The notes beneath the pieces were generated by a model that had not been told where the DNA came from, did no database searches, and worked only from the letters and a program-made list of their open reading frames with translations. From an uncultured Clostridia bacterium (GTDB lineage: Bacteria; Bacillota_I; Bacilli_A; RF39; UBA660): DNA of 64,000 bases. The position numbers were made by a program, and so were the translations under genes. Shown here one piece after another: positions 19,188 to 45,904 of this stretch; position 1 is the stretch's first letter, and each line of letters opens with the position of its first letter. The DNA lies in contig CAMBUO010000006.1 of assembly GCA_945871105.1 (NCBI GenBank), positions 7,452-71,451 on the forward strand, read 5' to 3'.

Positions 19188-20708
19188 TTAATAAATAATT
19201 GATTTTAGATCACTAATAGTTGTTGTATTAACAATTCCATATCTTGGTACTTTATACTTATTTGTTCCAACTCTAACTTTCATTCTACCACCCATAAAAG
19301 CCATGGTAAATCCGGCTTCTTTAACTAAACTAATTGCATAATCATTATATTCAAAGAATGGATAACAAAAATAAGTAGTATTATTTAAATCTTCTCTTGA
19401 TTTTTTTAAATCAGCTAAGATTTTTTCGCGAGCTAAACATTTAAGGGGACTTCCTTGTCCTCCACTACAAGCACCTGTATAATGCAAATTATCCGTATGC
19501 GAATGAATTTCTAAATTAGGAGAATTATAATCAAAACCGGTAATATTTTTTATATTACCAACTAAAAACAAAGTAGCATGTAAATCATATTTTTCTAATA
19601 CTTCAATTGTCTTTGGAATATAATATCCATCATCAACCGTAATAACAACTGTTCTTTCAGGTAATCTAATTTTTCCCTCAATAAACATTTCTAAATCATT
19701 TAAAGTAGCTGTATAAAAGCCTTCATTTTTAATAAATTCCATATGTTCAGAAAACTTTTTATCACTTAAACAAATAATATTAGTACATTCATATCTTTCA
19801 GCCACACTATTAGAATCATAAGTATAATGATAAGTTAAAACAGCTATCTTACTAGTATATTTTAAATTATAACTATTATTTTGATAAACATTAACCTCAT
19901 CTTTTTTCAAATAATATAATTTATTATGAATAAGTACTCCATAATAATTATCTTCCATAACTAAAATAGGAAAACTATATTCACCAATTAAAGAAAAAAC
20001 AACTTTATCATCTAAATAAAACTTTGGATTATTAACCTTAATATTTTTATCAAATGAAATATAATTTAAATAAGTATTCTTTTCTTCTTCAATACTTTCT
20101 TCTTTAATATTCAAGTAATCAATATAATAATTAGTATCTTTTATTTTAAAATAACCTGATTTAGTATAATCATCACTCTCTAAATTTAAATAATTATTTA
20201 TATTAATAACACCAACAACTTCTAAATTAGAATCAACTAATTTATACAATTTCTTAGCTTTTAAAGTTACAACATTATCATGATAATATTCTAAATAATT
20301 AATTACTTTCTTATCATCTATTACTTTTAATTTATTTATTTTAAAATAACTAACTAAATTATAAGTAGACAAACTTAAAAAAACTAAACTACTAATTATA
20401 ATACCCATAATTAAAATACTTTTTTTAATTTTCTTTTTACTTTTCTTTCTAGGAACTATTAATTCATTAACTTCTAATTCTTTCTTTTTATTTTTTTCTT
20501 TACTATTCTTTTTATTAGATACTACTTCAACATTTTTCTTTGGTTTAGAACTTACCTTATTATTATTTTTCTTTGGTTTAGTACTTTTTTTATCATTATT
20601 TTTATTTGGTTTAGAACTAGTTTTATTATTATTTTTCTTTGTTTCAGAACCTTTATTTTTATTTAATTCCTTTTCTTTTTCAGTTTGATTATTCTTTTTA
20701 TTACTCAT
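19188..20708 (-). CDS. membrane-anchored polysaccharide deacetylase (NodB/CE4 domain) with Lys/Asn-rich N-terminal tail
   Basis: C-terminal VVITVDDGYY...LHATLFLVGN...HSHT are NodB motifs. There is one TM segment (ILIMGIIISSLVFLSL). The N-terminal ~95 aa are low-complexity Lys-rich sequence. Confidence 0.8.
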   Translation of the reverse strand: MSNKKNNQTEKEKELNKNKGSETKKNNNKTSSKPNKNNDKKSTKPKKNNNKVSSKPKKNVEVVSNKKNSKEKNKKKELEVNELIVPRKKSKKKIKKSILIMGIIISSLVFLSLSTYNLVSYFKINKLKVIDDKKVINYLEYYHDNVVTLKAKKLYKLVDSNLEVVGVININNYLNLESDDYTKSGYFKIKDTNYYIDYLNIKEESIEEEKNTYLNYISFDKNIKVNNPKFYLDDKVVFSLIGEYSFPILVMEDNYYGVLIHNKLYYLKKDEVNVYQNNSYNLKYTSKIAVLTYHYTYDSNSVAERYECTNIICLSDKKFSEHMEFIKNEGFYTATLNDLEMFIEGKIRLPERTVVITVDDGYYIPKTIEVLEKYDLHATLFLVGNIKNITGFDYNSPNLEIHSHTDNLHYTGACSGGQGSPLKCLAREKILADLKKSREDLNNTTYFCYPFFEYNDYAISLVKEAGFTMAFMGGRMKVRVGTNKYKVPRYGIVNTTTISDLKSIIY

Positions 20709-43813: not shown

Positions 43814-44866
43814 TTAAACTGATTTTACTCTTTCTTTAGCTTTTTTTAAGTTATCTTTAATAATAAATATAGCTAATAAAATACCTGTATAAATAACAAA
43901 TAAATAGAAATTAATAAATCTTGTAATAAACATAGCACTTCCTAAAACATTTGGATTAAATAAATTTTTATAAAGTTTCATGAAAATTGCTTCACTTATA
44001 CCAACAGCACCTGGAAATGGTAAAGAAGAAACGGTTATATTTAAAACGGCTTGGGTAGTAATAAATTTAAAAATAGATGTATCGTGATATCCTAAAGATA
44101 GGTAAACAAAATAAGGAATTGAAAAAACTAAAACTATTTGTATTAAGGTTGTTACAATACATTTTAAGATTATTTTTTTATTAGTTTTTAAAATAGTAGC
44201 TGATTTAGAATATTCTTCAATTTGTAAATTAATTTTTTTCTGAAGTTCACTTGTTTTTTTATAATGAAATTTATTTAAAACTTTACCAATAATTTCTACT
44301 ATAAAAATAATTATTTGTTTAAAGAAAACTATTAAAAAATAAAGAGTACAAACTAAGATATTTAAAAATAATCCTAAAAAAACTAGATATTTAAAGTTTC
44401 CTAAAGTAGTAATTATTTGGTTATAGGAAGTAAAAAAACTAATACTTGCTAATATTATCATGACAAATTGATAAACCATTAATTTGGTAAATAAAGCAAT
44501 AGCTGAATGACTAACTGGTATTTTATCTTTGGTCATTAAGTAAAAAGCCATAGGATCACCACCTGATGAAGATGGGGTAATTGACGCAGTAAAAAAAGCT
44601 CCAACAGCATATTTATAACACTTAGAAAGTTTTATTTTGTTACCAAGCGAATTTAAAACTATTTTAATATTTAATCCTTCTAATAAATTATAAAAAAACA
44701 TACAAAGAATACCAAAAAAGATAAAAGTTTTATTTGATTTTTGAAAAATTAAGATAACATCTTTAAAAGTAGTTTCTTTAAAGATAAAATAAAAAACAAT
44801 TACAACTAAAATAACAAAAAAAATACTACTTAATAAACTTTTTTTTATAATACTATTTGCTTTCAT
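43814..44866 (-). CDS. flippase-like membrane protein (lysylphosphatidylglycerol-synthase TM-region family, UPF0104)
   Basis: Eight or more TM helices. AVGAFFTASITPSSSGGDPMAFYLM matches the family motif. Start set at the ATG at 44866, which has an AAGGATGA SD. Confidence 0.7.
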   Translation of the reverse strand: MKANSIIKKSLLSSIFFVILVVIVFYFIFKETTFKDVILIFQKSNKTFIFFGILCMFFYNLLEGLNIKIVLNSLGNKIKLSKCYKYAVGAFFTASITPSSSGGDPMAFYLMTKDKIPVSHSAIALFTKLMVYQFVMIILASISFFTSYNQIITTLGNFKYLVFLGLFLNILVCTLYFLIVFFKQIIIFIVEIIGKVLNKFHYKKTSELQKKINLQIEEYSKSATILKTNKKIILKCIVTTLIQIVLVFSIPYFVYLSLGYHDTSIFKFITTQAVLNITVSSLPFPGAVGISEAIFMKLYKNLFNPNVLGSAMFITRFINFYLFVIYTGILLAIFIIKDNLKKAKERVKSV

Positions 44867-44971
44867 AACATCATCCTTATAAATATAATTTATTATAAAC
44901 ATTTAAAGTGACTTTTAAATGACTATTTCCTTTATCATCATATCATATTTTTAAGAAAAAGAGAAATATTT

Positions 44972-45007
44972 TTAGAAAAAAGAAAAAACCTTGAAAATCA
45001 AGGTTTT
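44972..45007 (-). terminator. strong Rho-independent terminator with no CDS upstream of it
   Basis: Minus strand AAAACCTTG-attTt-CAAGGTTTT followed by TTCTTTTTTC. It lies about 105 nt upstream of the flippase-like gene start. Confidence 0.65.
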
Positions 45008-45141
45008 AAATACAATATTGGTGCCTTTGTAGAAGAATTCGAATAACTTTTCTTACAAACATTAATAGGTAGTAGTAATTTACTAGCTAATACAAGTATA
45101 TCACAACTTTATAAAATTGTTACATTTTTTTACTTGTTCGC

Positions 45142-45170
45142 TTGTTTTTATATTTATTTGATAGTATACT
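45142..45170 (+). promoter_or_regulatory. promoter of the candidate type I toxin mRNA
   Basis: TTGTTT (45142-45147), 17 nt, TATACT (45165-45170). Predicted start is near A45177/G45178. Confidence 0.5.
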
Positions 45171-45233
45171 TTTTATAGGGAATATCAGTTGTTGAGTGTC
45201 TACCTCTAATCTTTATAGAGAGGAGGTTTGATA

Positions 45234-45329
45234 ATGATGAAGAAAAGAAACTTTGTAATCAAAGTTCTTCGATACATTACTATCATTTTATTTCTCCTTA
45301 TCATTATGATAGTAGTAATAAAAAAATGA
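45234..45329 (+). CDS. candidate type I toxin: 31-aa basic/hydrophobic single-TM peptide
   Basis: GAGAGGAGG SD (45218-45226) lies 7 nt before ATGATG. The ORF gives MMKKRNFVIKVLRYITIILFLLIIMIVVIKK, ending at TGA. It is absent from the ORF track because of its size. The RNA context is described in the findings. Confidence 0.6.
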   Translation: MMKKRNFVIKVLRYITIILFLLIIMIVVIKK

Positions 45330-45438
45330 CACTTAATTCGCATTTGAATTAAATGTCGTCCAAATAATTTTGGGTAGACATTCAACATTGCTAAACTGAA
45401 TGTTCCCTTTTTTATTTTATGCGATTATTTCTGCTTAC
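45317..45438 (-). ncRNA. candidate antisense antitoxin sRNA (about 120 nt) convergent with the toxin mRNA
   Basis: It starts about 7 nt after a near-consensus promoter. It ends at the hairpin GACATTTAATTC-aaatgc-GAATTAAGTGTC (45357-45328), which has 12 bp on this strand only, followed by ATTTTTTTATT. It is fully complementary to the toxin 3' UTR and the last toxin codons. Confidence 0.5.
45372..45417 (+). terminator. Rho-independent terminator of the toxin mRNA
   Basis: GGG-(TA bulge)-GACATTCA, 12-nt loop, TGAATGTT-CCC (45372-45407), followed by TTTTTTATTTT. Confidence 0.6.
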
Positions 45439-45444
45439 ATACTA

Positions 45445-45473
45445 ATATTATCATAAAAACATTGTTTTGTCAA
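45445..45473 (-). promoter_or_regulatory. promoter of the antisense sRNA
   Basis: Minus strand TTGACA (45473-45468), 17 nt, TAATAT (45450-45445), with a TGn extended -10. Confidence 0.6.
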
Positions 45474-45487
45474 AATTTTTTCTGCAA

Positions 45488-45772
45488 TTATTTCACTTTT
45501 AAACAAGTTTCTATCATACTTACAATTACATTATTAAACGAAGTATCATTTTCTTTTGCTATTTTTTCAATCTCTTTAACCAAACTTTCCTTTATGTCAT
45601 CACATTCATCAAACATTAAATAATCAATATTATTAATTTTAATAATATGTAGTTTTACATAAGCAATATTAGTACCTTTAATATTCTTAATATTTCCATT
45701 TGTGATAGTAGGTTTAACACAGGCAAACTTACATATCATCTCAACTTTCTTAAATAACAAAAAAACTAACAT
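45488..45772 (-). CDS. hypothetical small protein (83-94 aa), possibly with a C-terminal ribbon-helix-helix-like fold
   Basis: ORF directly downstream of tRNA-Ala. The C-terminus YLMFDECDDIKESLVKEIEKIAKENDTSFNNVIVSMIETCLK has a strand-helix-helix pattern like CopG/Arc proteins. The start is ambiguous (ATG at 45772 or 45739) and neither has a good SD. Confidence 0.4.
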   Translation of the reverse strand: MLVFLLFKKVEMICKFACVKPTITNGNIKNIKGTNIAYVKLHIIKINNIDYLMFDECDDIKESLVKEIEKIAKENDTSFNNVIVSMIETCLKVK

Positions 45773-45828
45773 TTCTGTTAGTAATTTATTACTCTCTAAA
45801 CTTTAAAAGTTCGAGTTTCCTATCAATA

Positions 45829-45904
45829 TGGTGGAGCATAGCGGGATCGAACCGCTGACCTTCACGGTGCAAACGTGACGCTCTCCCAGCTGAGCTAATG
45901 CCCC
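45829..45904 (-). tRNA. tRNA-Ala (anticodon UGC)
   Basis: Reverse complement GGGGCATTAGCTCAGCTGGGAGAGCGTCACGTTTGCACCGTGAAGGTCAGCGGTTCGATCCCGCTATGCTCCACCA. It folds as a cloverleaf with a G3:U70 pair, anticodon loop TTTGCAC, T-loop GGTTCGATCC and an encoded CCA. Confidence 0.95.

Follow-up and report, generated by a model that had tools for sequence, protein, structure and literature searches.

Does the gap of 585 base pairs (bp) between an LPG_synthase_TM-family gene and an open reading frame (ORF) of 94 codons (ORF94) in a contig from an uncultured Clostridia bacterium (CAMBUO010000006.1) contain a gene pair that has escaped annotation? A preliminary description of the window, that is, of the whole stretch of 64,000 nucleotides (nt) analysed here, had proposed that it holds a type I toxin-antitoxin (TA) module with a small membrane peptide, an mRNA whose 5' and 3' ends pair with each other (the clamp) and a convergent antisense RNA. 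Every described element was found at its coordinates by direct reading of the sequence, and the elements go far beyond what chance would give. Judged by its sequence features and their conservation, the module belongs to a real new family that is built like a type I TA system, with a predicted clamp between the 5' end of the mRNA and its terminator, and with a predicted antisense RNA aimed at the 3' arm of this clamp. A type I TA-like module with a clamped mRNA and neutralisation by antisense RNA is probably the best explanation of the locus as a whole.

The peptide gene and its relatives

Relatives were collected with a DNA pattern taken from the conserved 5' untranslated region (UTR), GTTGAGTGTCTACC-N5-25-GAGGAGG, which was scanned in species-representative genomes; the loci listed are a lower bound. 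At least 119 loci carry the pattern. Nearly all hosts of the listed loci are metagenome-assembled genomes titled uncultured Bacilli, Tenericutes or Firmicutes, with gut sources in rabbit, mouse, goat, deer, chicken and human. 'Candidatus Ventrenecus stercoripullorum' and 'Clostridium sp. CAG:594' are among them. In GTDB the hosts probably belong to the order RF39, and the NCBI taxonomy places Candidatus Ventrenecus as incertae sedis. About 100 distinct copies conserve the ORF, both promoters, the Shine-Dalgarno sequence (SD) and both terminators, and a family model built for nhmmer matches the window at 45135-45482 (E = 1e-84). The preliminary description had proposed a search of related genomes for covariation, and had regarded an ORF that is kept without the clamp or the antisense signals as evidence against a TA module. 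The opposite was found, since the ORF, the covarying clamp and the antisense promoter and terminator are all kept in these copies from many species.

The same module is found in quite different neighbourhoods, as in contigs L011-L015. Tandem modules occur among the listed loci with two copies at 14 loci and three copies at 3 loci, and L014 has a second tandem module that is strongly diverged. With 91% identity, a locus in a related strain or species (L010, 480-790) retains the 3' half of the toxin ORF together with ORF94 and the two antisense signals, promoter and terminator. A DUF3800 gene stands there in place of the toxin promoter, 5' arm, SD and start, so that the locus is an 'orphan antitoxin' remnant.

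On the plus strand, the promoter TTGTTT-17-TATACT that had been proposed was read directly at 45142-45170 and has a matching site in 81 family members. The -35 hexamer is TTGTTT or TTGTAT in these members, the spacer is 17 nt long in 67 of them, and the -10 hexamer is TATAAT in 48 and TATACT in 15. A conserved start, AGGGAA, lies 6 nt downstream of the -10 hexamer in 56 of the 81. The predicted toxin mRNA extends for about 239 nt from this start to the U-run of the terminator (45177-45415), both ends being predictions. The SD GAGAGGAGG was read at 45218-45226, 7 nt upstream of ATGATG at 45234 as described, and leads into a 31-codon ORF (45234-45329) that encodes MMKKRNFVIKVLRYITIILFLLIIMIVVIKK and ends with the stop codon TGA (45327-45329). 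In the peptide a basic N-terminus is followed by a single hydrophobic helix and a KK tail.

Homologous peptides occur in about 90 distinct versions among 140 listed modules. Almost all of them are exactly 30-31 amino acids (aa) long and end at TGA, with the consensus MK(T/K)(K/R)xF(I/V)(I/L)K(V/I)L(K/R)(L/Y)I(A/S/T)IIL(F/L)LLI(I/L)(M/L)(I/V)V(V/A/E)IKK. The variants show exchanges between I, L, V, F and M, and the entropy across the family is highest at the third codon position (0.78), followed by the first (0.60) and the second (0.38). With its fixed length and a coding-type substitution pattern, the predicted 30-31-aa ORF is a real gene. A few family copies are frameshifted. Divergent copies that were found with nhmmer, outside the selection by the pattern, have strong SDs and hydrophobic ORFs of 24-34 aa that start with M-x-K-K-D.

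A subtype with a peptide of 27 aa, MGKKDFLI...LLFI(I/T)LK, has the stop codon TAG and a longer 3' spacer, with the 5' UTR, SD and clamp as in the 30-aa type. It is found in L090 (6704-7649), L033, L051, L070, L084, L114 and L121, often in tandem arrays of two or three in which the hairpin loops differ between the copies. This suggests that coding cassettes have been exchanged on one RNA scaffold and that the antisense contact sites have diversified.

In genetic code 4, where TGA is translated as Trp, the ORF in the window would extend to 47 aa. This reading was rejected for the genome because TGA ends 9 of the 45 long ORFs in the window. The standard code is used, with Trp encoded by TGG, and the TGA at which the 31-aa ORF had been described to end is a genuine stop. 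On the family side, members with TAG or TAA stops have similarly short ORFs of 24-34 aa.

Code 4 has nevertheless left its mark on the public protein sets. A search of 1.84 billion representative proteins gave four matches of 87-139 aa, the first 30-31 residues of which are 90-100% identical to the peptide. These residues are followed by 'W' and unrelated sequence in three of the four, and the fourth continues without a TGA. Three more proteins were matched when the 47-aa TGA read-through peptide of the window was used as the query. The protein matches are code-4 gene calls that read through the TGA stop, and code-4 gene calling on short low-GC contigs mis-annotates this lineage. The public sets hold the family only as such calls with TGA as Trp (P0018-P0024), which are 36-139 aa long and run into the 3' UTR or into tRNA genes. 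The exact peptide is absent from the protein collection in its 30-, 31- and 33-aa forms.

By eye, the peptide had been judged to be unlike known toxins, and searches with hidden Markov models (HMMs) agree with this, as there was no significant match to the peptide in Pfam, NCBIfam or PADLOC. Nor did 21 family members have a significant match in Pfam or NCBIfam, and the weak, non-significant HMM matches that they have point to small regulators of the membrane, MgtR and MacP among them. A profile search of PDB gave 0 matches, and Rfam at E <= 10 gave only the neighbouring tRNA and matches at chance level. The pattern had 0 matches in viral contigs, blastn against plasmid and phage records found no match, and a full-text literature search for the peptide and UTR sequences and for type I TA systems in RF39 was equally negative. 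Across these collections no sequence link was found to any described toxin or antitoxin family.

Pairing between the ends of the mRNA

The 5' arm of the clamp starts at the predicted first transcribed base (45177-45205) and pairs with 45372-45408. Its 3' arm is the intrinsic terminator of the mRNA itself (45372-45413), consisting of GGG-UA-GACAUUCA, a 12-nt loop, UGAAUGUU-CCC and UUUUUU, and folds on its own as a hairpin of -9.2 kcal/mol. The terminator arms are at least 90% conserved across the family and the loop varies. That the target of the 5' end comprises both arms of the terminator hairpin, as had been claimed, was read directly and is borne out by RNAduplex and by the pair counts in the family. 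For the pairing first proposed (45178-45204 with 45373-45407), RNAduplex reproduces the two G-U pairs within 27 nt and the bulges of 7 nt and 1 nt, and the full clamp likewise has one bulge of each size. The clamp duplex reaches -39.8 kcal/mol, as compared with -9.6 ± 3.2 kcal/mol and a minimum of -25.6 kcal/mol when the 5' segment is paired with 18,166 other windows of the sequence.

Folding of the mRNA segment 45177-45417 (241 nt), a check suggested in the preliminary description, gave a minimum free energy (MFE) of -77.6 kcal/mol, against -41.5 ± 4.4 kcal/mol for dinucleotide shuffles (z = -8.26); 0 of 200 shuffles folded as well. The MFE structure contains the clamp and a helix between the SD and CCUC (45203-45206). 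It had been pointed out that the SD can alternatively pair through AGAGG with CCTCT, and this local anti-SD element, CCUCU at 45203-45207, forms a structure with the SD that spans 45203-45226. Across the 81 members the mean unpaired probability of the SD is 0.11, and its partner is the local 5' element in 54 of them.

The clamp is not peculiar to the window. In the 81 complete copies the cognate duplex between the 5' and 3' arms has a mean of -36.3 kcal/mol and beats all of 10,000 re-pairings of the arms. Independent compensatory types include GGGAAU/AUGUUCCC versus GGAAAU/AUGUUUCC, GGAAAUAU/AUAUUUCC, and AGUU/AACU versus AAUU/AAUU. Covariation was counted on a compact arm-linker-arm alignment of 59 distinct arm pairs, in which 89.8% of the cells are paired and both partners have changed in 16 of the 28 pairs. 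There are 63 double-changed cells, a number that 0 of 500 shuffles reach (17.5 ± 3.3 in shuffles), and the covariation score of 0.190 falls to 0.02-0.08 when the partners are slid by 1-3 columns. Applied to the raw MAFFT alignment, RNAalifold gave an alternative SD-CUCC pairing within the coding sequence and only 12 clamp pairs, the low number of the latter being due to indels at the ends that misalign the outer helix.

Many copies in different contexts, with arms that form an imperfect DNA inverted repeat and change in step, would also be expected of a miniature mobile DNA element with terminal inverted repeats, of which the ORF and the RNA structure would be by-products. However, repeats maintained at the DNA level would show G.U and A.C cells equally, and the non-Watson-Crick cells of the clamp are G.U in 86 cases and A.C in 3. 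The clamp is therefore an RNA structure of the plus strand and not a DNA inverted repeat. The arms moreover begin exactly at the predicted transcription start, 6 nt after the conserved -10 hexamer, and because the 5' arm starts at the conserved AGGGAA in this position it is the extreme 5' end of the mRNA that would be sequestered. The length and codon pattern of the ORF are conserved, no transposase or target duplications were seen, and viral, plasmid and phage matches are lacking. A mobile element of this kind is hardly credible as an explanation of the locus.

The antisense gene and its tRNA neighbourhood

The promoter that had been described on the minus strand, TTGACA-17-TGnTAATAT, was found by a promoter scanner at 45473-45445 (10/12 plus TG). 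A TTGNNA -35 element, a 17-nt spacer and a TG-extended -10 element are present on the minus strand in 78 of the 81 members, and the -10 hexamer is TATTAT in 51. In 100 distinct modules of 360 nt these promoter elements are as conserved as the coding region, and the hairpin loops and a small spacer hairpin vary. The predicted antisense start lies 27-29 nt past the end of the plus-strand terminator in the family.

A terminator scan, which gave 2 terminator-like sites where 0.1 were expected, recovered the 12-bp hairpin (45357-45328) and its tract ATTTTTTTAT as described; the complete antisense terminator, in which the hairpin is followed by AUUUUUUUAUU, occupies 45317-45357 on the minus strand. 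The U-tract (ATTTTTTTATT) had been recognised as the complement of the final Lys codons of the toxin, and on reading it covers the last Ile-Lys-Lys codons and the stop codon as well. This hairpin at the stop codon is perfect only on the minus strand, as had been pointed out, with U.G where the plus strand has C.A, and its stability is -12.6 kcal/mol on the minus and -10.1 kcal/mol on the plus strand. The same preference for the minus strand is seen in 65 of 70 distinct family variants (mean -12.2 on the minus versus -9.3 kcal/mol on the plus strand). In each of the two main sequence types a single position is U.G on the minus and C.A on the plus strand, and its place along the stem differs between the types. 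Because the hairpin favours the minus strand across the variants, each strand of the predicted gene pair bears a structure that is selected on that strand.

The conserved promoter and terminator delimit a predicted antisense RNA, the candidate antitoxin, of about 119 nt (45320-45438, minus strand). The family has a median predicted length of 117 nt and a range of 89-138 nt. The fold of the RNA is about -26.2 kcal/mol (z = -3.35). The sizes given earlier for the mRNA (~235 nt), the antisense RNA (~120 nt) and their overlap (~95 nt) are close to those predicted here, where the overlap is about 96 nt (45320-45415). Starting with the last three codons, it extends through the post-stop hairpin and the spacer hairpin and takes in the 3' arm of the clamp. 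The cofold of the antisense RNA with the mRNA has an energy of -186 kcal/mol as compared with -103.7 kcal/mol for the two RNAs separately. No extra complementarity of the antisense RNA to the translation start was found, with -24.2 kcal/mol versus -24.5 ± 4.1 kcal/mol for shuffles.

The spacer hairpin, CCAAA-UAAU-UUUGG at 45360-45373, lies within the overlap and could act on either strand, as it appears in the MFE folds of both. Its sequence varies across the family, and in L010 CTGAA/TTCAG replaces CCAAA/TTTGG as a compensatory change. Since the loops in the overlap differ between tandem copies, tandem neighbours are probably insulated from each other.

All that the RNA and ORF features establish is that a small ORF is translated and faces a convergent antisense RNA. 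An ordinary non-toxic small membrane protein tuned by an antisense RNA would have the same features. The locus would then serve the regulated expression of a small protein rather than act in addiction or stress, and the weak matches to MgtR and MacP are in line with this. Yet the copies are multicopy, in tandem and in unrelated contexts, and frameshifted copies together with one antisense-only locus represent the behaviour of selfish TA loci rather than of housekeeping small proteins. An mRNA that is closed at both ends and has a locked SD is, furthermore, characteristic of toxin mRNAs. A non-toxic small protein is thus unlikely, and the type I TA-like module is preferred.

The modules are often found next to tRNA genes. 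A tRNA gene lies within 500 nt of 38 of the 119 listed modules (10.8 ± 2.9 expected), in 37 cases on the side of the antisense promoter. All 42 tRNA genes within 500 nt on this 3' side point towards the module, with a median gap of 36 nt, and thus always have the direction of the antisense RNA, irrespective of type (Leu, Thr, Met, Lys, Ala and others). The encoded CCA of different tRNA genes leads into a conserved linker, GATTGATAGGAAACTCGAACTTTTCGAGTA (e.g. in L120, L115, L027, L088 and L025). In the window it follows tRNA-Ala (45829-45904, minus strand) at 45790-45828 on the same strand. A terminator-like hairpin, ACGACTT-GTCAAAA-AGTCGT-TTTTT, is embedded in the antisense -35 element and spacer. 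The adjacency might reflect either spread targeted to tRNA genes or functional coupling. The linker that joins tRNA-Leu to the module in L020 has an 11-nt unit, CAAATATAAAG, repeated five times in tandem, which is absent from the other copies.

This neighbourhood allows a different interpretation, in which the minus-strand elements are the end of a hisS-tRNA-Ala-ORF94 unit and the plus-strand hairpins a shared convergent terminator, with no dedicated antisense RNA. ORF94 ends 15 nt before the -35 hexamer, read-through would stop at the hairpin 45357-45328, and the uniform direction of the 42 tRNA genes fits the same picture. However, the TG-extended promoter is kept in sequence, spacing and position in the 78 members, including copies without an upstream tRNA or gene, and where a tRNA gene is upstream there is a separate terminator hairpin between the tRNA and the antisense start. 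It is very improbable that the minus-strand signals are the end of such an operon, and a dedicated antisense gene is the preferred interpretation.

ORF94 itself (45488-45772, minus strand, after tRNA-Ala) has no family match in Pfam, NCBIfam or PADLOC. The tRNA-Ala linker flanks it on one side and the antisense promoter on the other, and in most relatives this position is empty. An identical ORF94 protein is found beside the antisense half of the module in L010, in a different context, and fragments or weak relatives in L126, L062 and L110. ORF94 was rejected as a partner gene because it has no family and recurs beside a module only in L010, plus fragments in L126. It looks like a later insertion and not like a part of the module, because the same linker follows tRNA-Ala and ORF94 separates this linker from the antisense promoter.

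The LPG_synthase_TM-family gene on the other side of the module is also on the minus strand (43814-44902; Pfam E = 6e-37). Between this gene and the module there is a second good minus-strand terminator, AAAACCTTGATTTTCAAGGTTTT followed by a T-run (44985-45007), which would halt read-through from the antisense RNA or from the tRNA operon ahead of the gene. The window has a G+C content of about 24% and nearly all of its genes are on the minus strand. At a distance from the module, four copies of a 33-nt direct repeat (20527-20691; 67-100% identity to the reference) lie inside a minus-strand ORF of 506 codons (19188-20708), which gives a protein with an 11-residue repeat.

Proposed mechanism and comparison with known type I systems

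By analogy with txpA/RatA, bsrG/SR4 and the upstream helix of Fst RNA I, the clamped mRNA would be long-lived and poorly translated. An antisense RNA in excess would form a long duplex with the 3' end of the mRNA and pull the 3' arm off the 5' end, and the duplexed mRNA would then be destroyed, probably by RNase III together with 5' and 3' exonucleases. If the supply of antisense RNA falls, the stable mRNA would be translated and the peptide might damage the membrane and stop growth. The terms 'toxin' and 'antitoxin' are well-founded predictions in this scheme.

Several points weigh against the module as interpreted here. Both transcripts are predictions from sequence. The folding models show no state in which the SD opens, its unpaired probability being 0.11 both in the full mRNA and after removal of the 3' arm, and 0.08 when the part bound by the antisense RNA is blocked. 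Part of the minus-strand conservation could serve the termination of tRNA operons, because about one-third of the copies lie directly downstream of a co-directional tRNA gene. Furthermore, the search pattern fixed 14 nt of the 5' arm (45191-45204) and GAGGAGG in most copies. The unbiased evidence for this stretch of the clamp consists of 12 divergent full-length copies found with nhmmer, of which 9, one per distinct sequence, are among the 59 rows of the alignment. All 12 keep the clamp, at -26 to -41 kcal/mol, with both arms rewritten, as in GUUGAGUACUUGCC/GGUGAGUACUCAAC, UUUAGGUACUAUUC/GAAUAGUACCUAA and UUUAGGUGCUUACC/GGUAAGCACUUAAA.

A more far-reaching proposal combines these features into a lineage-wide type I TA superfamily of genome-reduced uncultured gut Bacilli, which would be coupled to tRNA genes and have a mechanism that has not been described before. 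The 5' end of the mRNA would invade its own intrinsic terminator and form a closed 'panhandle'. The antisense RNA would resemble the 5' end of the mRNA, as both complement the same 3' arm, and might neutralise the mRNA by outcompeting the 5' end for the terminator, which would leave both ends open to RNases. The modules would be tethered immediately downstream of co-directional tRNA genes through the conserved linker, and the antitoxin supply would be coupled to transcription of the tRNA operon and hence to growth rate. As a whole this proposal is tentative and rather less likely to be right than wrong.

The peptides and RNAs of one type I TA family have no sequence in common with those of another, which makes such systems difficult to detect. 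Reviews list them only for Proteobacteria, Firmicutes and Tenericutes, mostly from cultured model species. With well over 100 copies among the species-representative genomes of an uncultured gut lineage, the family described here is nevertheless absent from annotation, and it indicates that unannotated pairs of sense and antisense genes are recoverable from raw sequence. It also provides a large natural series of compensatory variants of an mRNA with its 5' end paired to its own terminator; with these variants the contribution of end-to-end closure to mRNA stability and to antisense control can be tested directly. That the modules lie so consistently by tRNA genes raises the new question of how such modules spread or are regulated.

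The hallmarks of type I systems are found in the module. Its short mRNA has an ORF, preceded by an SD of its own, for a hydrophobic peptide of fewer than 60 aa. An antisense RNA complementary to the toxin mRNA is present as a gene prediction, and the mRNA is highly structured with an occluded ribosome-binding site, as seen from the z score, the unpaired probability of the SD and the covariation of the clamp given above.

The closure of the mRNA is reminiscent of hok, which also has a leader ORF, and of aapA1. In hok/Sok (R1) and aapA/IsoA (Helicobacter pylori) the full-length mRNA is closed by pairing between its 5' and 3' ends and is translationally inert (PMC8594479, PMC6733600). The likeness to hok/Sok that had been suggested is restricted to this end-to-end clamp and does not extend to the location of the antisense RNA. 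In both known systems the latter targets the 5' part and lies wholly inside the mRNA, whereas the antisense RNA of the module would target the 3' clamp arm at the 3' end and has no 5' complementarity. A HokA match in one of the 21 members was noise (E = 0.12).

In the 3'-overlapping layout of Gram-positive bacteria, represented by txpA/RatA and bsrG/SR4 in Bacillus subtilis, the antisense RNA is complementary to about 100 nt at the mRNA 3' end, with the last part of the ORF included (PMC8594479). A small hydrophobic ORF, a short structured mRNA and a convergent 3' antisense RNA are common to these systems (also bsrE/SR5 and yonT) and the module. The resemblance noted at the outset holds, as the predicted overlap reaches from the mRNA 3' end into the ORF, where it takes in the last three codons. 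No homology of the TxpA/BsrG/RatA/SR4 type was found in the Pfam, NCBIfam and Rfam scans, for which it was not checked which such models each library holds. The mRNA of the module has a 5' end that pairs with both arms of its own terminator, which is not known to be a defining feature of the txpA or bsrG families.

Another of the closest known systems is the par system (fst/RNA II) of Enterococcus faecalis pAD1, in which a 5' upstream helix (5'-UH) hides the extreme 5' end of the toxin mRNA and a second helix hides the SD (PMC7472228). Convergent promoters, a hidden 5' end and SD, an mRNA of about 230-240 nt and a peptide of about 30 aa in a low-GC Gram-positive lineage could suggest that the module is a divergent member of the Fst/RNAII family. 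Fst and Ldr peptides, however, have the signature PXXXG in the helix and a Trp before a highly charged C-terminus (PMC7472228), and the consensus here has no Pro, Gly or Trp and a tail of only KK. The 21 members had no match to Fst or Ldr HMMs (Pfam Fst_toxin, NCBIfam Fst models), and no match to the module was found in Rfam. Membership in the Fst/RNAII family is accordingly most unlikely, and a separate family with a type I TA-like organisation is favoured.

The genes are also arranged differently. In par both RNAs share one bidirectional terminator, whereas the module has two nested terminators, 45372-45413 on the plus and 45357-45317 on the minus strand, each inside the other transcript. 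The par RNAs have a second contact at DRa/DRb; the antisense RNA of the module has no contact at the translation start, where its duplex is no stronger than those of shuffles, and at about 119 nt it is considerably longer than the antisense RNA of par (about 40 nt). The likeness to fst/RNAII in the preliminary description thus stands for the sequestration of the 5' end but not for the shared terminator and the direct repeats. A helix that hides the 5' end is common to Fst/par and the module, but in the module the partner of the 5' end is the terminator itself.

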